The notes under the pieces are model-generated. The model saw only the letters and a program-made list of their open reading frames with translations, was not told where the DNA came from and did no database searches. From Chloroflexota bacterium (GTDB lineage: Bacteria > Chloroflexota > Dehalococcoidia > UBA2247 > JAXHVC01), in the NCBI GenBank assembly GCA_034189315.1, contig JAXHVC010000012.1, positions 1-55,702 of the forward strand: DNA of 55,702 nt, read 5' to 3'. A program made the position numbers and the translations under genes. This document shows positions 960 through 35,705 of the stretch, piece by piece. The stretch's first letter is position 1. Every line of letters begins with the position of its first letter.

Positions 960-1060
960 GACGTTCAATTAGTCAAATACTATTCAATGGCAACACGCCT
1001 CCGTATCACCAAAGCCGATTGAATACAAGATACCAATCAATATGGGATTACGATCGTAAC

Positions 1061-2113
1061 ATGAACAGAAAGCCAAACATACGGCTAACAGAAATGGTTC
1101 ACGGTGCAGGCTGAGCCTGCAAGATGGGTCCAGGGGACCTGGACAAAGCACTCCGCGATCTGCCAACCATGTCGCACCCAAACCTGATCAGGGGATTGGA
1201 AAAGGCCGATGATGCTGGTGTATACAAGTTGAGAGATGACCTGGCTATAATTCAAACCGTTGATTTCTTCACCCCAATCGTGGACGAACCATATGATTTC
1301 GGTCAAATTGCCGTGGCAAATGCATTGAGCGATGTTTATGCAATGGGAGGAACCCCTCTAACTGCAATGAATATCGTTTGTTTTCCTGTGAATACTATGG
1401 ATATTTCCATCCTGAGAGACATACTCCTGGGTGGATTTGATAAAATGAAGGAAGCTGAAGTTCTACTTGTTGGGGGGCATAGTGTAGAGGATCCAGAACT
1501 CAAGTATGGACTCTCCGTAACAGGCACTGCCCATCCAAATCAAATACTAGTTAATACAAATGCTCTACCAGGTGACAGTCTTGTTCTCACCAAACCTTTA
1601 GGAACGGGTATCATAAATACCGCTGCAAAGGGTAATATGGTCACCAAAGAACTCATAGCTAAGGCAACAGAATGCATGTCAACTCTGAACAAGACCGCCT
1701 CTGAAATAATGCAAGAAATCGGAGTGCATGCTTGTACCGATGTAACCGGCTTTGGATTGCTTGGACATGCATGTGAGATGATCGAAGGCACTGGCAAAGG
1801 TATGATCATCCATACTTCATCTATACCTTACTTCCCTGAGATTCAGGAGCTCGTAGAAACGGGATTAGTTCCTGGTGGGTTACACCGCAACAAACAATTC
1901 CGCATCAACATGATACAATCAGAGCCCAATATTCCCTATTGGATGATAGACATTCTATTCGATCCACAAACCTCAGGAGGATTGCTGATTGCGCTGCACC
2001 CTAAGAAGGCAAAGGTGCTGCTCGATCGCCTGCACAGGGCCAACATAACCGATGTGGCTATAATCGGTGAGATCACCGATTCCCCAAATGAAAAGATATT
2101 AATCAGGCAATAG
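1061..2113 (+). CDS. selD: Selenide, water dikinase (selenophosphate synthetase), selenocysteine-containing
   Basis: ATG at 1061 gives MNRKPNIRLTEMVHGAG-U-ACKMGPG, with an in-frame TGA (1112-1114) at the catalytic Cys/Sec position. Downstream motifs: DDAGVY, QTVDFFTP, ANALSDVYAMGG, DVTGFGLLGH, DPQTSGGLL. Confidence 0.95.
1128..1144 (+). promoter_or_regulatory. Bacterial SECIS-like hairpin
   Basis: GTCCAGG-GGA-CCTGGAC: perfect 7-bp stem with a G-first loop starting about 20 nt after the UGA. Confidence 0.75.
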
Positions 2114-10334: not shown

Positions 10335-11132
10335 ATGGCAACAGTTCAAGCAAATAATATCCAAATTCACTACGAAATCTACGGCAGTGGATCTCCATTG
10401 ATTATGATTATGGGATTGGGAGCGAACATGAACTGGTGGGATCCTCGCATGATCCAGGCACTTTCCCCACAATTCAAAACGATTCTTTTTGACAATAGGG
10501 GAACCGGTCAGAGCGAGATATCGGATTGTGAATACTCTATCACGCTATTCGTGAATGACGTGGCGGGACTAATGGATGCGTTACAAATACCTAAGGCTCA
10601 CATACTAGGTATATCAATGGGAGGAATGATTGCCCAAGAACTAGTATTGCACCATCCAGAAAAGGTAGAAAAGCTAATACTATGTTCCACATATTGTGGC
10701 AGCTCAAGAGGTATTCCACCATCACTTGATACACTTGGAATGATCACTGGAGATAGGACTAACATGACCCCAGAGGACATAACCCGTCGCACACTTCCCG
10801 CTTTATTCACCAAGGGATTTCTCGATGATAATCCGGAGTTCATTAATCTCACTATTCAGCAACTAATGGTAGAGCAAACTTCAGAGGATGTACTGATGCG
10901 TCAGATGAACGCAATTATTCAGTTCGATACTTTCGAAAGGTTGCCACAAATATCCACACATACACTTATTCTGCATGGTAAGAGGGATATCCTGCTACCA
11001 CCGGATAACGCAGCTGTTATGGCACAGGCCATACCTAACTCCCATCTCGTGTATTTCGAGAAATCGGCCCATGGTTTAGCAGAAGAGATGGATGATGTAG
11101 TCTTAATAGTTAAAAAATTCTTGGCAGAGTAA
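10335..11132 (+). CDS. Alpha/beta hydrolase (3-oxoadipate enol-lactonase-like)
   Basis: FDNRGTGQS, nucleophile elbow GISMGG, catalytic D (GKRD) and H (SAHG). Confidence 0.85.
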   Translation: MATVQANNIQIHYEIYGSGSPLIMIMGLGANMNWWDPRMIQALSPQFKTILFDNRGTGQSEISDCEYSITLFVNDVAGLMDALQIPKAHILGISMGGMIAQELVLHHPEKVEKLILCSTYCGSSRGIPPSLDTLGMITGDRTNMTPEDITRRTLPALFTKGFLDDNPEFINLTIQQLMVEQTSEDVLMRQMNAIIQFDTFERLPQISTHTLILHGKRDILLPPDNAAVMAQAIPNSHLVYFEKSAHGLAEEMDDVVLIVKKFLAE

Positions 11133-11360: not shown

Positions 11361-12302
11361 TCACCTCTTCAACGGATGATATCTTCTGTGGGCACCCTCA
11401 GCATACCTATCTGACGCATGAACGTAATGAGTAGTAGTAGCCAAAGACTCGTGACCTAGCAATATTTGTATGGCAGCCGGATTCGCACCCCCTTCTGCCA
11501 GATAGGTAGCAAAACCATGTCTCAAGGAATGGGCAGATGTCGGAACATTTATCATTAAATACTCACGATATCTCTTTATTCGTTCTTGAACATAATTAGT
11601 AGAAATCCTCTTCTTTTGATTTCCTGCATTTCTACCTGCATATGGTATAAACAGTGCGTGGAAGTTATCTTCACGAGTATCAAGATATCGCTGGAGATGA
11701 TCCTGAGCACGTGGAGTAAGGTACACAAATCGCTGTTTTTTTCCTTTTCCAGAAATGAAAATACGGCCACTTCCATCCACTTGATCCTTATTCAAATTGC
11801 ACACCTCTGAGATACGCATACCGGTAGCAAACAGTAGCTCTAAGATCGCTCTATTTCTCAAAGATACCCTGGGATTAGATTCCAATTTACTAGGGGCCTC
11901 TATAAGATTGACTAATTCCTCGAGTTCGGCAACTTGTGGATGCTTTTTCTCAGCCCTCGTCATCTTTATAGCATCAGGGGGAACAGGACAAGAATAGTCC
12001 ATCTCAATCATATACTTGAGATAGGACCTCAATGCAGAAAGCATTCTATTAGTAGAGCGTGATGCCATCCTCTCCACAACTGGCTCACGATGTTTGGGTG
12101 TTTTCCGATCCTGTGATGCTAAATATGCCTTATAGGCAACTATAGTCTTCTTATCGATTTCATCAAAGTCGATTCCCTCTTCTTTAAGAAATGTCTCAAA
12201 TACCCTTAGGTCTCGCTCATAGTTATACACCGTCTCAGGTGAGTAGTGATTCGATTGAATATTTAGTAGAAACTCATCAAGGTATTTTAATACTATCGCC
12301 AT
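11361..12302 (-). CDS. Tyrosine recombinase, XerC/XerD-like
   Basis: N-terminal SAM-like domain (YS.ETVYNYERDL). Catalytic R (TGMRISE), K (GKGKKQR), HSLRH, LLGH and Y. No integron-integrase insertion visible. Confidence 0.9.
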   Translation of the reverse strand: MAIVLKYLDEFLLNIQSNHYSPETVYNYERDLRVFETFLKEEGIDFDEIDKKTIVAYKAYLASQDRKTPKHREPVVERMASRSTNRMLSALRSYLKYMIEMDYSCPVPPDAIKMTRAEKKHPQVAELEELVNLIEAPSKLESNPRVSLRNRAILELLFATGMRISEVCNLNKDQVDGSGRIFISGKGKKQRFVYLTPRAQDHLQRYLDTREDNFHALFIPYAGRNAGNQKKRISTNYVQERIKRYREYLMINVPTSAHSLRHGFATYLAEGGANPAAIQILLGHESLATTTHYVHASDRYAEGAHRRYHPLKR

Positions 12303-19807: not shown

Positions 19808-20055
19808 CTCCACTCCTAAGAAACTGGAGGGTTCTTTTACTATTATCCCGTGTCCCTCACAAGTCCCATGCTTGCAATGACAGGAGGGGTTTGCCCAACA
19901 AACATTGTATTTGGGAGCTACGGTAATAATCATATATACAGATTCAGGTATGGGATAATGTCTTATCTTGGATGCCCACAGTAGATACAAGTAAAATGCA
20001 ACTTAATATTCTAAAAAAAGCAGAAATCCCGATTCTAACAAGGAGGCGCACTCCC

Positions 20056-20125: not shown

Positions 20126-21868
20126 ATGTATACCGAGGAAGAACTCAGGGAAATTGAGAAGCAGCGAAAGGAATGGGAAGAAGGGCCACTTCGCAAATCC
20201 CTTCAGCGTTTTGGGCTCGCTGATAATCCTACTAAGTTCTGCACCCCATTAGATGTTAAAGGTTTCAGCTTTCTAGATAAAGTTGGCTTTCCCGGGGAAT
20301 ACCCGTTCACCGCAGGGAAATATGGAGTGAATATGCCCCCAGGATTGCTTGAGATGGGTCTGGGCATGGCCTCAGGAGGTAGAGCTCCAGCGGGAGGTTA
20401 CTCGGGCTATGGCACAGCCGAAGATACCAGAGACCATTACAAAAACATGCAATCCCTAGGAATGATGACCGGTCCAAACATCGCATTTGATCTACCAACA
20501 CAGTGTGGATATGACTCCGATGATGCCTCGGCCCGCGGAGAAGTAGGCAAAGTTGGTGTAGCGATTGATACCTTGCATGACTTCGAGATTATTTATGAAG
20601 CTTTTACAGGTTCGTTGGAAATAGATAAGATATCTTCCAATTGGACAATTAATGGCATGACCAACATTATAATAGCGATGTATATTGCCATTGCAGAGAA
20701 ACGCGGTGTACCTTTAGATAAACTAAGAGCTACACCACAGAATGACATATTGAAGGAATATATAGCTAGAGGTACTTATACGTTCCCCATCAAAGCATCC
20801 ATGCGGATGACCAGGGACACAATGGTATACTGCACTCAAAACATGCCTAACATGAACACAATAAGCATATCCGGCTATCATATTCGGGAAGCGGGAGCCA
20901 ATCCTGCCCAGGTTTTAGCATTTACACTCTCTGACGGTATAGCTTATATGCAAGAGGGAGTGAATGCGGGCTTAGATATAGATAGTTTTGCACCACGGAC
21001 TACCTTCCTCAATTTCGGTGGAACTATGGAGGTCTATCGAGAGATAGCTCTATACAGGGCACTACGGCGGGTATGGGGCAGGATAATGAAGGATCGGTTT
21101 AACGCAAAGAATCCAAGGAGCTGGATGCTCAGAGGTATCGGTGGCCCGATGGGGTGTTCAGTGACTACAGCACAGCGGCCTCTAAACAACCTCTCTCGTG
21201 GTGTTATCCAAGGTGTTGCATCTGCCCTATGTGGAGAGATACCTGCAGGAGGCGCTCCTTTTGATGAACCGCTGGGCTTGGGACACAGTCGAGAAGGGAT
21301 GCAATTGACTATTGATGCTGCGAGGATTATGGTCTGCGAAGCCAGGTTATGCGATGTAGCAGATCCTGTGGCAGGTTCCTTTTTCTTCGAGGCACTCACA
21401 GATGAGATTGAGCAAGAAGGATGGGCGCTTATCAACAAGATCGATGAAATGGGTGGCGCACCAGCGGCTATTGAAAAAGGATTTCCTCAAAGAGAGATTG
21501 CAAGGAGCGCCCATGAATGGCAGCGGCAGATAGAAGCAGGTGAAAGGACCGTAGTGGGAGTAAACAAGTTTGTGGGTGAACAAGAGTTAGATGTCCTGCC
21601 GCAAACTATCGTTGAGCATCCCTATGATCCCAAGAAAAGGGCAGCGGCAGAGGAGAAGCAAATTGATCGTCTTACAAAGATCAAGAAGGAAAGGGATAAT
21701 GAGGCAGTCCAGGCAAGCCTGAAACGTCTCAAAGAGGCTGCCCAAGACGATAGCGTCAACTTGATACCTCCGCTTGTGGAATCAGTAAAACTCTATGCTT
21801 CACTTGGAGAAATGACCAAGGCCCTTAAAGAAGTATTTGGAGAATACCAGTCTTACGGTAATCTCTAA
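20126..21868 (+). CDS. B12-dependent acyl-CoA mutase large (substrate-binding) subunit, methylmalonyl-CoA mutase family, divergent
   Basis: GFPGEYPFT.G, AFDLPTQ.GYDSD, GEVGKVGVAID, QNDILKEY.ARG, ISISGYHIREAGA and VVGVNKF motifs. No DxHxxG cobalamin-binding domain. Confidence 0.88.
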   Translation: MYTEEELREIEKQRKEWEEGPLRKSLQRFGLADNPTKFCTPLDVKGFSFLDKVGFPGEYPFTAGKYGVNMPPGLLEMGLGMASGGRAPAGGYSGYGTAEDTRDHYKNMQSLGMMTGPNIAFDLPTQCGYDSDDASARGEVGKVGVAIDTLHDFEIIYEAFTGSLEIDKISSNWTINGMTNIIIAMYIAIAEKRGVPLDKLRATPQNDILKEYIARGTYTFPIKASMRMTRDTMVYCTQNMPNMNTISISGYHIREAGANPAQVLAFTLSDGIAYMQEGVNAGLDIDSFAPRTTFLNFGGTMEVYREIALYRALRRVWGRIMKDRFNAKNPRSWMLRGIGGPMGCSVTTAQRPLNNLSRGVIQGVASALCGEIPAGGAPFDEPLGLGHSREGMQLTIDAARIMVCEARLCDVADPVAGSFFFEALTDEIEQEGWALINKIDEMGGAPAAIEKGFPQREIARSAHEWQRQIEAGERTVVGVNKFVGEQELDVLPQTIVEHPYDPKKRAAAEEKQIDRLTKIKKERDNEAVQASLKRLKEAAQDDSVNLIPPLVESVKLYASLGEMTKALKEVFGEYQSYGNL

Positions 21869-21881
21869 GTAGAACGCCAGT

Positions 21882-21956
21882 TCCCCGATAGCTCAATGGT
21901 AGAGCATGCGGCTGTTAACCGCAGGGTTGTAGGTTCGAGCCCTACTCGGGGAGCCA
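21882..21956 (+). tRNA. tRNA-Asn (GTT)
   Basis: Cloverleaf with acceptor stem TCCCCGA/TCGGGGA, D arm GCTCAATGGTAGAGC, anticodon GTT (21914-21916), GGTTCGAGCCC T arm and encoded CCA. Confidence 0.97.
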
Positions 21957-29224: not shown

Positions 29225-29824
29225 ATGGCATATGCAATGAATTTGAAGCAGATCGAGAGGAAAGCCTGGGTGTCCCATTTCGAGGACGGATTGTGGGATA
29301 TCGCTTTGGCCATGTTCATGCTAACACCTGCAATTCGGACGTTCACGGACAACGTCTGGTTCACCCTCTTGTTTGCAGTGGCCCCGTTGGTCCTTATAGG
29401 AGGGAAACGATTCATTACCACCCCCCGTATTGGCCGAGTCAAGTTCGGTCGTGAGAGAAAGGATAGACAGAGGAGGATACTGATCGCCTTTGGTCTGACA
29501 ATCCTCATCACTCACGCAGCCCTTGTAATCGTCCTGGGTGTGCTGAATCCCTCCGAGACATGGATGCGTGTGGTCACGATAGGCCTTTGCCTCGGGGCAA
29601 TCTTGGGGTTGGTGGCCTATCTCCTCGACATCCCGCGTCTCTATGGGTATTTCCTGTTGCTTTTGACGGGTTGGGTACTTTGGGAGGCCTTCGGTGATCC
29701 TACTGGTCCGATCTGGCTCGCCCTTTCAGGGGGTGTTGTCCTGACCATTGGGATTGCCCTGCTCCTTCGTTTCCTTCACAAATATCCAAAGCTGGCTGAG
29801 GAGGTGCTGGACAACAATGTATGA
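29225..29824 (+). CDS. Multi-pass membrane protein (about 6 TM), typically paired with a wHTH regulator
   Basis: GGAGG RBS then ATG 29225. FEDGLWD, ITTPRIG.VKF and FL.KYP motifs with hydrophobic helices. Confidence 0.75.
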   Translation: MAYAMNLKQIERKAWVSHFEDGLWDIALAMFMLTPAIRTFTDNVWFTLLFAVAPLVLIGGKRFITTPRIGRVKFGRERKDRQRRILIAFGLTILITHAALVIVLGVLNPSETWMRVVTIGLCLGAILGLVAYLLDIPRLYGYFLLLLTGWVLWEAFGDPTGPIWLALSGGVVLTIGIALLLRFLHKYPKLAEEVLDNNV

Positions 29825-30140
29825 AGTAGACGATGATACTCTACAACCGGTGCCAGAGATCGATCGATTGGTTCACGAACCAGCCCGGCTGATGATCCTT
29901 GCGCACCTTTACGTTGTAGAAAGCGCAGATTTTCTCTTCCTGATGCGCCAAACCGGGCTGACCTTTGGAAATCTGTCATCGCACATGAGCAAGCTGGAGG
30001 CTGCGGGATACATCGATATCCAGAAGGAATTCGTGGGCAAGAAGCCCCATACCATGCTTCAGATCACCAACGCGGGACGAGTCGCCTTGCGCGAGTACCA
30101 GAAGCGCATGAAGCAGGTCCTTGATGATCTGCCTGATTGA
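29817..30140 (+). CDS. Winged-helix transcriptional regulator (MarR/ArsR-like HTH_34)
   Basis: IDRLVHEPARLMIL..L, ADFLFL, GLT.GNLSSH..KLE.AGY and K.FVGKKP.T motifs. GGAGG RBS. Confidence 0.88.
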   Translation: MYEVDDDTLQPVPEIDRLVHEPARLMILAHLYVVESADFLFLMRQTGLTFGNLSSHMSKLEAAGYIDIQKEFVGKKPHTMLQITNAGRVALREYQKRMKQVLDDLPD

Positions 30141-30189
30141 CTGCTCGGTGTCTATTGCTTCCAAACTGCGTAATACTTCTTCCTGCTCG

Positions 30190-30412
30190 CCACAGAGGCC
30201 ACGAGACTGGAGTTGCTTTGAGGTCTTCGCCGGGAAGGTGGCAGAGGGGATCAAGCTTCGGCACGACCACGGGGATCAGTATATGTCACATGGCTTTTTG
30301 GGAGGAGATTCGATTCCTGGGTATCGAGAGTACACCAGCCTTCGGTCGAGAGCCTGAGGGGAACGGCTGCGCTGAGCGATTCCTACGTACTCTCAAGGAG
30401 AACCTGTTGTCT
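30190..30412 (+). mobile_element. IS3-family transposase remnant (integrase-core fragment, frameshifted)
   Basis: LRHDHGDQYMS in one frame continues as EIRFLGIESTPAF.REPEGNGCAERFLRTLKE in another. Confidence 0.8.
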
Positions 30413-30554
30413 GTGAAATCCGAATATGAAACAATAGACGGAATGTTGGTAGCTGTTTCTGGGTTGTCTGATAGTCAAACGTCCTTGGCGAGAAAGTGAC
30501 CTTTTTGCTCACAGGGGCAGATATTGCCACTTGACAAGAAAGGCCTTATAAGAG

Positions 30555-31106
30555 TTAGCCGTTCCTATCTTTACCTTGATAGTTCTCAAGCAATTCCTCA
30601 AGCCGAACAAAGAACTCATTTCGTATGTTCTCTATGTGCAATGCTTCCTTGAAATCCACTATTGCCGTATCCCTACGCTTAAATCTATCTGGTTCCACTT
30701 GTAATGCATAAGAATTGATCTGTCTTTTCCAGAACCATTCTGCACAGCAGAATTGGACGTTTTCCGGATCGATAACCGTGATCGTTTTTAGAGATTGAAA
30801 TAACTTTTTTCCCAAAAGACTATTCTCAATACAAAAGGCAATGTAGGCGATCCTATACTCCACTTTGGGAATGACACCTTTTAATGGCAATGGTGCAAGG
30901 TTATGAGTATCTTTTTGTCCGTTGTAGACAAAATGGCCATAGCAGCTTTGCAGAGTGAAACAATAAGACAAATCGTTAAACCCATTGATGAGGTCTATGA
31001 TAGGTATGTCAATCATGTCATCAGTGAGATCGCACAGAGTTTTCTGTTTTTGCGCTTGAAAATGGGGATTTTCCGCTATTTTTTTTAGTTCAGTGAAGGT
31101 TTCCAA
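30555..31106 (-). CDS. Conserved hypothetical protein (possible distant TYW3-like fold), integron-cassette-like gene
   Basis: Clean 183-aa AT-rich ORF with ID.PI.DLI..FN....FTLQSCYGH. Its TAA stop lies inside GGCTAAC, complementary to the upstream GTTAGCC core. Confidence 0.7.
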   Translation of the reverse strand: METFTELKKIAENPHFQAQKQKTLCDLTDDMIDIPIIDLINGFNDLSYCFTLQSCYGHFVYNGQKDTHNLAPLPLKGVIPKVEYRIAYIAFCIENSLLGKKLFQSLKTITVIDPENVQFCCAEWFWKRQINSYALQVEPDRFKRRDTAIVDFKEALHIENIRNEFFVRLEELLENYQGKDRNG

Positions 31107-31148
31107 TTCTGCTATCCCTATCCATATAGTAACAATTTATGTTTCTTT

Positions 31149-31277
31149 GGCTAACGCAGAACTCAAGCACTGCTCAATTCTGGAGGATTGCGCCAGTCTG
31201 TTCAATCATGCGACTTGGCCGCTGAACACATGTCAATCAAGCCAGCTACTGCAATCGCTTGCAGCACTCTGTTGGAC
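31149..31277 (-). mobile_element. attC recombination site (integron cassette), 129 bp
   Basis: Minus strand reads R'' GTCCAAC, 5 nt, L'' GCTGCAAG (extrahelical G) ... L' CTTGAGT, 5 nt, R' GTTAGCC. Stem pairing continues with ATTGC/GCAGT. Confidence 0.8.
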
Positions 31278-33627
31278 GGCTCCCCCGCCTTTTCCTACAC
31301 GCCGTAAACGTTCGCGTCAGTGCCCAGAACATGAGAAGTGGTCCTGTTAGTGCCGCGTTTGCTGCAAATCCGATGTTGTGGCGGCTAGTCAGTGTTGCTG
31401 CCAAAGGATCGTCAAAAGCATGGTCATTGATAACGTAAGTCCATGTAGAGGCGGGGCCTCGAAGCCCCAACTCCTCCATGTCCACCCCACCGGATATGAT
31501 TTTCAGTGACATGAATCTCTCAACCATCCGAGCATCCATAGTGTCCAAAGTGTCAATGAATGACTGCGCCGCACCCTTTTGAAACTCTTCAAGAGGAGAC
31601 AGCCCGGCCACTTCTGCCAGGTGGACACTATCTCGAATCTCTGTAATCGTTGCCAGGTGCTCCGACCATCCTTCGTCAATAGCGTATAGAGTCAGTCTTC
31701 TTTCTAGATCATGCAAAGCTTCCTTCCCCAACGCCTGACACGCGCTTTCCCAGGCTGCAGGAAGGCGATCCTTCAGCACGCTCGGGGAGGTTGTCCCACT
31801 CAGCACTGATTTACGTCGTTCACAAATCAAACGACGTTGCTGCTCTATAAATTGTGTGTAGCGCCAAAGGTTGTGTGGCTGGACGCCATCTCCTAGGTAG
31901 TAGATCATCAATCCTATATCGTGTGAGCAGCTCGTCCTCCAGGCTGATGAAAAACCGAGATGCGCCTGGATCACCCTGTCGTCCAGCGCGTCCACGCAGT
32001 TGATTGTCTATCCGGCGGCTCTCGTGACGGTTTGTGCCAATAACATACAGACCACCGAGATCTGCTACCTTGTCACTCCCCTCTCCCTTGCTTCCCCCCA
32101 AACGGATGTCGGTTCCCCTGCCAGCCATGTTTGTCGATATCGTGATGGCGCCGAGGGCTCCGGCTTCGGCAATGATACGCGCCTCCTGATCGTCTCGCTT
32201 GGCATTGAGGATATTACAACCAACTCCAACTGCCAGCAAATCTGCGGCGAGTTCCTCGGACTCTTCTACGCTGAGGGTACCCACAAGTATGGGTCGTCCT
32301 GTGCTGTGGACCATTTCGATTTCTGCCAGGAGCGCACGACGTTTGACCTCTCGATGCACAAAAACTAGATCTGGATGATCTATGCGAAGGTTTGGCCGGT
32401 TGGGTGGAACAACCAGTATATCGAGTCCATAGAAACTTGAAAGCTCATCGGCAGCAGACTCAGAGGTAGCGGTCATGCCACAGAGATGTGGATACTGCAG
32501 CAGAAAGTGTTGAAGTGTAATGGATCCCAGGACACGTCCCTCCTTTGAGGGCCGCACACCCTCCTTGGCTTCGATGGCTGCCTGTAAGCCATCTGGCCAA
32601 TGACGATCTTCCATAACCCGCCCCGTAAATTCATCCACGATTTCTACTCGGCTGTCCCGAACGATATAATCCACATCTCGCTGCATCAGCATCCTGGCAT
32701 GAAGGGCAAGATTGAGCTCCGTCATTGATTGAAGGTTGGCAGGAGCATACAGATCGCCACAGCCGAGAATTTCTTCTGCGCGGTTCGTTCCTTCCTCTGT
32801 CAGATAGACATTTCGTCTGTACTCGTCGAAAGCAAAGTGGATTCCAGACTCAAGTTGCGTGGAAACGGTTTGCATCAGATTCTGTCGTCCCTGCTGGCAA
32901 TCAGTTGCTCCGGCTATGATCAAGGGGACGCGAGCCTCGTCGATGAGGATGGAATCTGCCTCGTCTACGACGGCCGCGTTAAAAGGGCGTTGCAGGCCTC
33001 GAAGGCCAAGCCATCCCGCAAAAAGTCGAAACCGGCATCCTTGGCAGTGAGATACGTAACATCTGCCTGATATGCATTCCGTCGCTCCACCAGACCCATG
33101 CTTCCCTCTATGAACTCGACCGTCAACCCCAGAAACCGATAGATCGGACCCATCCACTCAGCATCCCTTCGAGCGAGGTAGTCGTTGAAAGTAAGCACAT
33201 GCACGCCCCGCCTGCCTAGTGCGTGGAGAACCACGGGACTCACAGCTGCTAAAGTCTTCTCACCGGTATCCATCTGTACGATCTCGCCTTCGTGCAGCCC
33301 TAGTCCACCCATAACCTGTACGTCGAAAGGGCGCAACCCAATCTCTCGCCGAGCCACTTCACGCACGAGAGCAAAGACAGTGACGCACATGTCGTCCAGG
33401 GAAATGCCTGTGCGAGCACGCTCCATGAGGATGTCCGCTTCTATCCGCAACTGCGATTCGCTGGCTTGTCGCAGATGTGGTTCGAGGGCGTTTATGGCCT
33501 CGATTGTGTCCTTATGATGCTTTGATGGGCGGTCTACCGAGCTGCCAATAAAGCGTCGCGCAAGCTGTTTTATTCCTACAGTAGTGCCCACTTCTGTATC
33601 CTTCTCTGTCGCCTGGAGTTTAGTCAA
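31246..33627 (-). pseudogene. secA2: Accessory SecA (SecA2-like) translocase pseudogene
   Basis: RPFDVQ, NDYLARRDAEWM, VDEADSILIDEAR.PLII, DEFTGR, GLQAAIEAKE, STNMAGRGTDI and HESRRIDNQLRGRAGRQGDPG spread over three frames. Walker A is shortened to TGEKT. Confidence 0.88.
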
Positions 33628-33684
33628 AAACCAAGCTCATGCGCTTGCAGGGCGATATGTAGTCTATAAAAGGGAAGCTCTGAT

Positions 33685-33746
33685 CACCCCCCTAAATCCA
33701 CCAATCTTGGGGGATTCCTGTAACTGGGGGGCACCCCCAGACCCCC
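33685..33746. repeat. G/C-run REP-like double hairpin
   Basis: AATCCACCAA-TC-TTGGGGGATT and CTGGGGG-GCA-CCCCCAG followed by ACCCCC. Confidence 0.5.
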
Positions 33747-33876
33747 ATTTTGACTACTTGTTCAGAGGCTCCTAAATATTCGTTTGGTTTGAGAGTCAGC
33801 GTCTTTTGACCGCTACGTGGGAATGGAAATGACCTGCGGAAGCAATACCAGTCCTAATTTGAGAATGCCTCTGCGA

Positions 33877-33902
33877 GTCGGACTGCATGCGTTTGGCAGG
33901 CC
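33877..33902 (-). mobile_element. Degenerate attC left arm
   Basis: Nine nt after the stop at 33912 the minus strand reads GGCCTGCC-AAAC-GCATGCAGTCCGAC. This resembles GCCTAAC-N-GCATGCAG attC starts with AAC mutated. No clear right arm. Confidence 0.4.
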
Positions 33903-33911
33903 ATGCTCCCC

Positions 33912-34742
33912 TCAGTAGTCTGCGCCTTCCCTCTCGAAATGATCAACTATCACACCATCTATTTCATTCCAGAAACTTTCCGGCTCCATCCCTAACTCGG
34001 CGATCATCTCTCTTTCTATCATCCTTGCATCCCGATGTAGTGAAAACATATTCTTTAAGAAACTGGGGTATTGCTTCTCCATGTACCGCACCAACCAGTA
34101 CCCGCGCATGCCGTGATAGGCAATCGCCTCGACACCCATTCTCGATAGCTCTCGATATGTTGGGGGTGTCGCCTTTGGCATAAAGCCCCTCATATACTTT
34201 AAAGTCTCTTGTCTTATCGTCGGCCTTCCTTGGAAACGATCTACTGTCACTGTTGCTATTCCTTCATTGAGCCACATGGGCAGCTTTAGGTGTGCTGAAC
34301 AAGCATGCACCAGCTCGTGACATGTGACGTTTTGCACATTCACCCTCATATCCTTCTCTTCTACGAACATATGAATGTCAATGCTGCCGTGATACTCGTT
34401 GCCATTCTGTTCCATAAGTCGAGCTGGCTTTACCCCGATTGCTACTTTCCTGCCATACGACTGCGTCCAGCCAGCGCTATACAGCCACGTTCTTCGGGCT
34501 CGGAAGCCCCAGAATGGCAGTGTTGTCCCCATCAGTATCCGCCAGCGCCACGGAGCCGACTGTAATAGAAACCCTAACCAAGAGGTCATCACGTAAATGC
34601 TGCAGTTATCAGGCGGTTCCAATCCCCAATTCTCACGAACGAGTTGCATCGCATTCTCGCAGGTGATAGCGATTAAGTCAGCGGAGTCCTGTTCATCAGG
34701 ATCATATACCAACACAACATTGCCAATTGCTCTTGAGTTCAT
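33912..34742 (-). CDS. Putative zinc metallopeptidase (HExxH, peptidase MA-like)
   Basis: HELVH followed by LP.WLNEGIA. ATG 34742 preferred because it lies downstream of a GTTGGGC core-like site (34782-34788). Confidence 0.7.
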   Translation of the reverse strand: MNSRAIGNVVLVYDPDEQDSADLIAITCENAMQLVRENWGLEPPDNCSIYVMTSWLGFLLQSAPWRWRILMGTTLPFWGFRARRTWLYSAGWTQSYGRKVAIGVKPARLMEQNGNEYHGSIDIHMFVEEKDMRVNVQNVTCHELVHACSAHLKLPMWLNEGIATVTVDRFQGRPTIRQETLKYMRGFMPKATPPTYRELSRMGVEAIAYHGMRGYWLVRYMEKQYPSFLKNMFSLHRDARMIEREMIAELGMEPESFWNEIDGVIVDHFEREGADY

Positions 34743-34851
34743 AGGCACAGAATTCCCACTTTCGTGCCGTAATGCCGTACGGCCCAACAACGTGATAGAG
34801 CAAATTACCCATTCAGGGATGACAATCATCAGAGCAGTGTTATCACAAAGA

Positions 34852-35002
34852 ATAATACTTCACTCTTTGCACGCACACAATTCTAGCAAGTGAGTGATCC
34901 TATATAGTCTCCCTGTCCACATCTCAGAAACAGCCCGTATTGGGACTGTCGTTGCGAATAAAACCTGGGAGCCATCTTATACTTATACATACTTCCCTGA
35001 AG
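34852..35002 (-). repeat. Copy 2 of the ~145-bp direct repeat with a minus-strand promoter
   Basis: Aligns with 28785-28926. TTGTGT (34880-34875), 17-nt spacer, TATTAT (34857-34852). Confidence 0.85.
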
Positions 35003-35455
35003 CCTGAGACCTTTCCTTCGGCTGGAGCCTTCCGTCTCGGAGAGATAGGGTTCTGTTGGCCAGTGAACCTAGGGATGAATCGTGGGTTGCGACCAGGACG
35101 GCACACCCACGATCGGAAGCGAGTTCGTTCAGCAACTCGATTATGCTGTGGCCCGTCTCCGAATCCAGATTCCCCGTCGGCTCGTCGGCCAGAATCACCA
35201 CCGGATCATTGGCCAGGGACCTGGCGATGGCAATGCGTTGCTGTTCCCCTCCGCTCAGTTGCAGTGGACTGTGACCTCCCCGATCCCCCAGCCCCACGAG
35301 ATCGAGGATCTCTCGTGCCCTCTCCCTCCGCTGTTTCCGCGAACCCTTCAACCCCTCCATCGGGAGTTCAACGTTTTCGACAGCCGTAAGGCTCTCTATG
35401 AGATTGAAGTTCTGGAAGATGAATCCAATCTTATCCCTCCTGATCCTGTAGAGTA
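34983..35455 (-). pseudogene. 3' half of a LolD/MacB-type ABC ATPase
   Basis: RRDKIGFIFQNFNLI, LSGGEQQRIAIAR and ADEPTGNLDS motifs. The Walker A region is missing. Confidence 0.8.
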
Positions 35456-35459
35456 AGGA

Positions 35460-35705
35460 CATCGTCTGGCACATACACCGAATATATCCCAAGGACCTGG
35501 AGATCCACTCCGCCAAGGTTCACCGAATCGCCCACTTCCGCATCGAAAAATTCTGATGCCTGTTCCGAGAGGACAACACTGAGATCATCCCCCCTCCTGC
35601 AAATTGCGTCCTGCGATGATATCCAAATGATCGAAGACGTGGTACTTCTCGTTCAACAGGGGATCAAGAGGGACGCCCACCACTTCATATTCGGGATATT
35701 CCGAT
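35460..35705 (-). pseudogene. Internal fragment of a MacB-like ABC permease periplasmic domain
   Basis: IIAGRNLQEG(frameshift)DDLSVVLSEQASEFFDAEVGDSVNLGGVDLQVLGIY, joined directly to the ATPase fragment. Confidence 0.6.

Follow-up and report, generated by a model that had tools for sequence, protein, structure and literature searches.

Are the genes between positions 30,554 and 34,880 of a 55,702-nucleotide contig from a Chloroflexota bacterium integron gene cassettes, and what has become of the array to which they would have belonged? This contig (JAXHVC010000012.1; C24 in our numbering of the 272 contigs of the 3.65 Mb genome G000) was analysed at its full length, and the whole stretch is referred to below as the window. 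A first interpretation made without database searches (the sequence-only reading) had described here, on the minus strand, an eroded cassette array without an integrase gene, comprising a promoter, a core site, a gene for a HExxH protein, a degenerate arm of an attC recombination site, secA2, a canonical attC and an open reading frame (ORF) of 183 amino acids (aa). The strings it listed are all present on that strand, with exact coordinates. We consider it quite likely that an integron gene-cassette array once stood here and that the region is what decay has left of it; it has no integrase nearby, is set in a chromosomal stretch of higher GC content and is similar to the clusters of attC sites without an integrase (CALIN). 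By the evidence of their flanks, the 183-aa gene and the HExxH gene are integron gene cassettes, with 5' borders exactly at the cores picked out by the reading. Judged from their letters as written in the window, the recombination sites of the array are no longer functional.

An attC site is bounded by the motifs R'' (RYYYAAC) and R' (GTTRRRY), which are complementary to each other, and contains extrahelical bases; the canonical extrahelical base is a G on the bottom strand. IntegronFinder is said to call a CALIN where two or more model-detected attC sites lie close together, and both this two-site rule for integrase-less clusters and the features of attC were reportedly set out by Cury et al. 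in 2016 and in related work.

Two covariance models for attC were used, R1 (6 class 1 attC sites) and R2 (15 sites). The training sites came from eleven plasmid loci found with an integrase of G000 (45.9% identical to IntI1) as query. R1 recovered held-out attC sites of catB3, GES-1, cmlA1, OXA-1, IMP-34, an orf cassette and one on a cyanobacterial plasmid. R2 gave 22.6-83.1 bits on known sites, and in two genomes belonging to the same class as the host it recognized attC sites next to intI (33.2 and 22.0 bits).

Evidence for cassettes comes first from the 183-aa gene. Its protein has 2411 homologues in metagenomes, of which the 119 listed have 73-84% identity; the few with a source name belong to several bacterial lineages. 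Flanks were analysed for 54 metagenome loci, the border pattern was counted over 39 of them, and 72 sources were searched with R2. A GTTAGCC-type core is located 44-50 nucleotides (nt) before the start codon in 18 of the 39 loci (49 nt in the window); the leader is common to the homologues up to this core, and beyond it their flanks are unrelated, i.e., similarity breaks at G|TTRRRY as it does at the 5' end of a cassette. At the end of the gene, a GGCTAAC-type inverse core is present in 29 of the 39 loci, followed in many of them by an attC of 60 nt. R2 returned 30 matches in the 72 sources, 29 of them on the strand of the gene. In eight loci (L092, L095, L082, L108, L125, L118, L086, L087; 16.9-31.3 bits) the match starts ~0-25 nt after the gene, and in four (L080, L086, L087, L081; 19.6-30.3 bits) it ends 40-43 nt ahead of the start codon; the R' core of the window ends 43 nt ahead of it. 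The breaks in similarity thus coincide with the R' ends of significant attC sites (E 1.3e-4 to 0.079). Since the similarity among homologues starts at GTTAGCC and ends at GGCTAAC, these two motifs of the window are true cassette borders. The sequence-only reading had bracketed the ORF in just this way, by GTTAGCC upstream and its exact complement GGCTAAC (30560-30554) overlapping the stop codon; the two are complementary at 7 of 7 positions, and the rest of this attC has been replaced. The check it had proposed, whether cargo homologues are flanked by attC sites, turned out positive for this gene in 11 of the 54 loci, where our own model found a site directly behind the gene or 40-43 nt before it. 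An integron integrase was not found within 4 kb of the homologues, the only recombinase there being a generic one (27% identity) in L092.

This comparison bears on the most sceptical explanation, according to which no integron was ever involved, the leaders being regulatory regions that move with their genes and the GTTRRRY-like ends being coincidental. Indeed, every one of the motifs, taken alone, occurs at chance frequency: the window contains 77 GTTRRRY (94.7 expected, hence no enrichment) and 4 GTTAGCC (4.8 expected), none of the strings of the reading rises above chance by itself, and the cargo genes are also found outside cassette contexts. However, coincidence would have to account for similarity breaks at the R' ends of significant sites, for the orientation of all model matches but one with the gene, and for the complete complementarity between the core at the 5' end and its inverse at the 3' end in the window. 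We give this explanation hardly any credence, and the flanks of the 183-aa homologues largely refute it. Note that, of the cores described as GTTRRRY-type, GTTGGGC fits the consensus, but GTTAGCC departs from it at position 6.

The second cassette, with the HExxH gene, is delimited in the same manner. Among 447 homologues of its product, those listed are 63-74% identical and mostly ~270 aa long. The leader is conserved from GTTGGGC (window), GTTAGGC (L015 and L016) or TTAGGC (L021) to the start codon, and upstream of this point the window and the three loci are unrelated. Such a border, with similarity starting at GTTRGGC as in a cassette 5' end, was seen in these 3 of 14 loci inspected. The GTTGGGC (34788-34782) that the reading had placed 40 nt ahead of the ATG at 34742 is therefore a real cassette border. 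Behind the gene, the degenerate attC arm that had been proposed for 33902-33877 has a homologous counterpart in two Anaerolineales contigs (L015/L016), namely the R''-L'' arm of the attC behind their HExxH homologue: the window's GCCAAAC-gcatg-CAGTCCGAC, downstream of the stop codon, aligns there with GCCCAAC-aagtcgtt-GCAGCCGAC, and GCCAAAC is complementary to the border GTTGGGC at 6 of 7 positions. A 3' arm of this attC was not found in the window. Since the first arm of this attC has survived with the cassette, erosion after insertion has demonstrably been at work. L015/L016 possess two related attC-like sites of 132 nt, one on each side of the HExxH homologue, with a common inner motif. With filters off, R2 does not detect these long, Anaerolineales-type sites, which shows a limit of this class 1-derived model. 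There is no integron integrase within 6 kb of the HExxH homologues.

Between the two cassettes lies the site at 31149-31277, which the reading had regarded as a canonical attC. With filters off, R1 gave six matches in the window, all with E of at least 2.7 and none in the array region. The best match of R2 in the window (filters off) coincides exactly with 31149-31277 (minus strand), and its alignment spans the full model, from R''-L'' to L'-R'. Its R'' GTCCAAC fits RYYYAAC; its R' is the imperfect GTTAGCC, which homologous cassettes use as well, and R'' and R' are complementary at 5 of 7 positions. In the L box, 7 Watson-Crick and 2 G-T pairs are formed, and a single base bulges out at model position 16. 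We asked how often such a geometry (an AAC-ending R'' with at least 5/7 complementarity, an L box with at least 7/9 Watson-Crick pairs, and a bulge in the canonical place) stands upstream of a fixed GTTAG at the spacing of attC. Dinucleotide shuffling (20,000 shuffles) equalled it in 0.45% of cases, and of the 4519 GTTAG sites in the genome, 26 did so. If the position is left free, 21 window sites match equally well within slightly wider limits (spacers of 4-7 nt, length up to 200 nt). Hence, the geometry is significant because the homologues fix the border at GTTAGCC, and would otherwise be at chance level. We conclude that 31149-31277 is probably genuine, an attC that belonged to the preceding cassette and has since decayed. 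The 45 nt at the centre of the site (31213-31257) are also found, between other flanks, in contigs from three runs of a single marine-metagenome study and once more in G000 (C91:9715-9755, 85% identity over 41 nt).

A number of results weigh against an array. Both covariance models were built by ourselves and are not those of IntegronFinder. The match at 31149-31277, whose absence the sequence-only reading had named as part of a refutation, has 12.2 bits and E = 1, below the 22-83 bits of true sites; three unrelated places reach at least 12.2 bits in ~305 kb of background sequence with filters off. It is the only match in 30400-35000 with filters off, and it is sub-threshold, so that the two detected sites of a CALIN are lacking; under the same settings, R2 found nothing at 33877-33902 nor after the 183-aa ORF. 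The hairpin that was expected from folding the bottom strand did not appear: the minimum free energy is -16.2 kcal/mol with the ends unpaired (z = +0.51; of 200 shuffles, 134 fold equally well or better) and -12.8 kcal/mol with the ends forced to pair, compared to -18 to -35 kcal/mol with paired ends for class 1 attC sites of 60-127 nt, and ~-34 kcal/mol, also with paired ends, for true sites of the similar length of 114-127 nt. Omission of the 45 nt at 31213-31257 restored no hairpin. The bulged base is a G on the top strand, as the reading had it for L'', but is therefore a C on the bottom strand, which is non-canonical. For the HExxH gene, the 132-nt sites of L015/L016 were recognized by eye and with our own geometry script and not by R2; 11 of the 14 loci show no cassette border; and in L017 and L019 (2 of 27 loci) an ABC ATPase gene (~41% identity) lies directly upstream of the HExxH homologue, in an ABC-transporter operon. 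Ahead of GTTGGGC, attC geometry is missing; the best L box in that stretch has 3 of 9 pairs. For the secA2-like gene, no cassette border was found, there being no close relative for comparison: the best among 400 genomes of the phylum is 52% identical (G441 and G553, both unpublished and with 47% each, are counted here, and the statement holds without them).

Several of these results would equally be accounted for if there had never been an array, the two cassettes having been inserted singly, in trans, at secondary GTT sites of a backbone that includes secA2 and the ABC ATPase gene, and 31149-31277 being fortuitous. Off-target insertion by a distant integrase is one route to such a situation, attributed to Cury et al. 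(PMC8618304, excerpt), and the missing attC geometry ahead of GTTGGGC, the secA2-like gene without a border found and the unfolded site with E = 1 speak for it. On the other hand, the geometry of 31149-31277 has a chance of only ~0.5% at its fixed R', both cassettes are co-oriented within 4.3 kb, and the attC arm kept by the HExxH cassette indicates that sites here did erode after insertion. We therefore regard two independent insertions as unlikely, though deserving more weight than the sceptical explanation given above. Beside off-target insertion, the same excerpt gives two further origins for clusters of attC sites without an integrase, namely loss of intI and rearrangement (PMC8618304).

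In a decayed array, the secA2-like gene between the two cassettes would probably be a third, unusually large cassette, closed by the weakened attC at 31149-31277; it is taken for a cassette because it lies between the attC arm and the attC-like site. There is indeed a secA-like gene here, as the reading had stated, but it is split over three frames (32965-33627, 31820-33157 and 31246-31995) and is a pseudogene. The middle piece matches TIGR04221 (SecA2_Mycobac) best among the NCBIfam families, with 489.5 bits compared to 461.9 for secA; with TIGR04221, the three pieces reach 154, 490 and 117 bits, far below its cut-off of 725. About 40 model positions are absent at the lesion near 31870-31912. 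Another run of the same study yielded a near-identical contig with 85 additional letters at 31870-31873. The deletion in the window is accordingly a real one of the lineage, or at least not an error of this assembly alone. A contig from the probable source run, which is not independent, agrees with the window at this point. As far as these assemblies can be compared, a deletion polymorphism at 31870-31873 breaks the frame in the window. A second SecA match, without internal stop, is located on contig C164 and is presumably the housekeeping gene.

The beginning of the array had been pictured as a promoter (Pc) and an attI site, with TTGTGT-17-TATTAT as promoter. The string is there, but the role is unsupported: its -35 box agrees with the consensus at 3 of 6 positions, and a consensus scan gave 7 promoter-like sites in 8 kb compared to 7.8 expected, so that the match is weak and no better than chance. 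Nothing attC- or attI-like was seen upstream of GTTGGGC, where no model of attI was applied, and a Pc-attI start of the array is likewise unsupported. With this weak promoter match and no intI on the contig, the locus is not a complete integron. The ABC ATPase ORF lies just upstream of the array remnant.

If the cassettes were inserted by an integron integrase, is there one in the genome? A search for IntI elsewhere had been recommended in the sequence-only reading, which supposed that the gene was lost or lies outside the locus. Two full-length genes and a partial one were found, all on other contigs: C269:13209-14177 (L011; 422.7 bits for TIGR02249, cut-off 265), C265:4043-4978 (L009; 367.3 bits) and a gene cut by the contig end on C74 (257.5 bits). 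The cut-off was passed by none of 14 control genomes and by 6 of 301 genomes sampled in the host's class, G000 included. On C24, TIGR02249 gave only 42.8 and 42.7 bits, within one 316-aa recombinase ORF at ~11.4-12.3 kb; no integrase lies near the array, as in a CALIN. This ORF (11394-12281), located 10 kb upstream of tRNA-Asn, is a tyrosine recombinase similar to XerC/D. The intI gene on C269 has a flank of 2.5 kb with an acetyltransferase-like ORF and a membrane protein, that on C265 one of ~40 kb. R2, with default filters or with filters off, found no convincing attC on the integrase contigs C265 (40 kb), C269 and C74, the best match being a 34-nt stretch with 13.6 bits, and inspection of the integrase neighbourhoods for direct repeats and by eye revealed no attC.

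A further trace of integron activity is a small array on C210 (1-3100, L134), which consists of an 85-aa ORF with MazF, an attC (1060-1191, minus strand, 27 bits), a HicB-HicA pair, a copy of the repeat described below and the contig end. A dispersed palindromic repeat with CGCTAAC...GTTAGCG ends and G/C-rich inner hairpins, present on about a dozen contigs (e.g., C186 3221-3335, C79 1337-1421, C57 3837-3962), was considered as a lineage-specific attC and rejected, since it has no R2 score and no match in the window. A G/C-rich palindrome at 33690-33760 of the window resembles it without a BLAST match.

The 3' end of the array is occupied by another repeat. Directly after the R'' of the 183-aa cassette, the window contains a member of a family with seven further copies in the genome (C109 289-461, 3763-3934 and 4864-5032; C210 94-271; C262 14876-15054; C63 1048-1223; C62 7778-7909), i.e., eight loci together. 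The copies are 132-178 nt long, two of them up to ~300 nt; two C109 copies have ~300 nt in common, at whose end the first 13 letters of the repeat recur in inverted form. Every copy starts at AAC (once AAT) after four variable bases (GGCT, AGCT, GCCT, GCCT, GGCT, CCAT, CCCC, ATAT), which in most cases are R''-like RYYY. All copies examined (C109, C210) follow an ORF: on C109, in order, the end of an acetolactate decarboxylase gene, a 586-aa ORF and a PIN-Phd pair, and on C210 the HicB-HicA pair. In the metagenome cassette of L080, the first 15 letters of the repeat likewise stand right after R'', and the L'' arm is lost there. The summed contig depth is 339 over the repeat of the window, compared to 19 for neighbouring sequence. 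The window copy is shorter than full ones and abuts a frame-shifted transposase remnant (30296-30421), which looks rve-type from motifs read in its frame translations, resembles an ORF on C26 and has no Pfam match at E up to 0.01. Apart from the overlap of the window copy with the tail of this remnant, the repeat has no recognized coding capacity.

What is this repeat? As an attC family it was rejected, for it has neither an R' core nor an end-to-end palindrome and is not detected by R2. A derivation from IS200/IS605-type elements was dismissed as well, as remnants of Y1 transposases are confined to C146, C101 and C253 and no TnpB was found. A permissive Rfam search of 29500-35500 and C109 1-6000 revealed nothing relevant and no group II intron RNA, and a Transposase_20 (PF02371) of the IS110/IS1111 type is absent from the genome. 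Elements that target one end of attC are known, namely the IS1111-attC group and group IIC-attC introns (PMC11187229, PMC3001079, excerpts). The repeat is similar to them in position only, as it starts at the R'' end of attC and separates the gene from the remainder of its attC, and it differs in having no DEDD transposase, no intron RNA domains and a length of only 132-178 nt. It is conceivable, though we hold it only tentatively, that the repeat is a small, non-autonomous element of Chloroflexota, so far undescribed, which targets integron attC sites and puts them out of use, or else a second type of cassette end taking the place of attC. Its seat exactly at the R'' end of cassettes makes it the most interesting loose end of this analysis. 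A separate repeat of ~70 nt occurs on more than 50 contigs of G000 with 76-86% identity, e.g., at C109 ~646-715 (397-466 of C109 250-1000) and at 19813-19880 of the window.

These findings also allow a reading in which the array is still functional, 31149-31277 and the repeat being lineage-specific sites for the genome's own integrases. The integrase contigs do lack canonical attC sites, the repeat stands in the place of an attC after ORFs at eight loci, and R2 misses long sites of the Anaerolineales type. However, the repeat has neither an R' core nor an end-to-end palindrome and is invisible to R2, in the window it is shortened and joined to a transposase remnant, and secA2 is broken. There is a slim chance at best that such an array is active. 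In the decayed array that we prefer, an integron integrase would have inserted both cassettes by recombination between the G and the TT of the GTTRRRY core; the attC of the HExxH cassette would then have been reduced to its first arm by decay, and the last attC would have been cut directly after R'' by the multi-copy repeat, followed by the transposase remnant. This agrees with the reading's notion of an eroded array.

The coordinates of the features discussed are given in Table 1.

Table 1. Features of the array remnant and of its immediate surroundings in the window.
Feature	Position	Strand	Basis
Frame-shifted transposase remnant adjoining the repeat	30296-30421	+	52% identity over 42 aa to an ORF on C26
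~146 nt of the repeat family, from the AAC of R'', replacing the remainder of the 183-aa attC	30412-30557	-	Seven other genomic copies
183-aa cassette, TTAGCC through the ORF (31106-30555) to R'' GGCTAAC	30554-31154	-	Homologous borders, flanking attC matches
attC-like site, GTCCAAC to R' core GTTAGCC	31149-31277	-	Best window match of R2, full-length
secA2-like pseudogene, three frames, lesions near 32990 and 31870-31912	31246-33627	-	SecA domains over three ORFs
Surviving 5' arm of the HExxH attC: R'' GCCAAAC, spacer, L''	33877-33897	-	Aligns with L015/L016
HExxH protein gene, 276 aa from ATG 34742	33912-34742	-	No Pfam, NCBIfam or PADLOC family
GTTGGGC, 5' border (R' core) of the HExxH cassette	34782-34788	-	Similarity to L015, L016 and L021 starts here
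TTGTGT-17-TATTAT, proposed as Pc, weak promoter-like string	34852-34880	-	Not reported by the consensus scan
ABC-transporter ATPase ORF without N-terminal part	34983-35516	-	Pfam ABC_tran, profile positions 54-136/137 only

The array remnant is part of a segment (~23-37 kb) with a GC content of ~0.46-0.54, compared to ~0.39-0.47 in the flanks, which sits downstream of a tRNA-Asn gene (21882-21956). No direct repeat (at least 12 nt) of the tRNA-Asn 3' end, as a border of an island, was found in the window; the one 12-mer common to both, at 10865, corresponds to the middle of the tRNA. The protein of the methylmalonyl-CoA mutase family encoded by a flanking housekeeping gene at 20126-21868 has its nearest named relatives mostly in metagenome-assembled genomes of Chloroflexota/Dehalococcoidia (~60% identity), so that a Chloroflexota host is probable. 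The cargo of the array is accessory, the 183-aa gene and the HExxH gene each being absent from all 40 relatives of the host that were compared. No RNA run is listed with this stretch, and two other DNA runs of the same study carry only small shares of it. The array may either have been built in G000 or have been imported ready-made with the higher-GC segment.

For the 183-aa protein itself, four leads, each of them weak but all in agreement, point to a TYW3/Taw3 methyltransferase-like fold. A neighbour in a protein language model gave a TYW3-type lead (0.89), Pfam PF02676 matched with E = 0.033 (13.9 bits, below the cut-off of 27), a profile comparison with PDB entry 2drv gave E = 0.59, and the confidently predicted structure (pLDDT 83.9, pTM 0.81) had as its ten best PDB matches in Foldseek exclusively TYW3-like proteins (from 2qg3, 2drv, 2it2, 2it3, 2dvk and 1tlj), with probabilities of 0.85-1.00, a best E of 2.7e-4 and TM-scores of only 0.39-0.53. 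It therefore shares with TYW3/Taw3 (PF02676) the predicted fold and faint sequence signals, but differs from this family in its sub-threshold Pfam score, in the low TM-scores and in being encoded by a bacterial, cassette-borne gene. This gene of a putative TYW3-like protein is a very widespread and highly conserved cassette gene.

How does the locus compare to integron systems described so far? With CALIN it has in common co-oriented cassettes, attC-type borders, the absence of intI from the contig with intI elsewhere in the genome, and accessory cargo. It differs from them in that the only full-length attC-like site of the array is sub-threshold and two others are truncated, i.e., it is a fossil rather than a working cluster, and it probably fails the operational definition with its two model-detected attC sites. 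Even where erosion has put an array beyond the reach of a covariance model, it can be recognized by where the similarity to the relatives of its cargo starts and stops, and this comparison of borders is a practical route to old integron cargo in chromosomes. Chloroflexota are named among integron hosts in the excerpted text of PMC8618304, and our analysis adds to the record of this phylum a decayed array as well as two full and one partial integrase genes. The sedentary chromosomal arrays of Anaerolineales and other Chloroflexota resemble the locus in the border and attC arm of the HExxH cassette, which are homologous to those of L015/L016, in the long attC (~130 nt) and in the toxin-antitoxin cassettes found elsewhere in G000; they differ from it in that the window has no adjacent integrase and its sites are eroded. 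The array is thus a genuine but ordinary case of a known gene-capture system.

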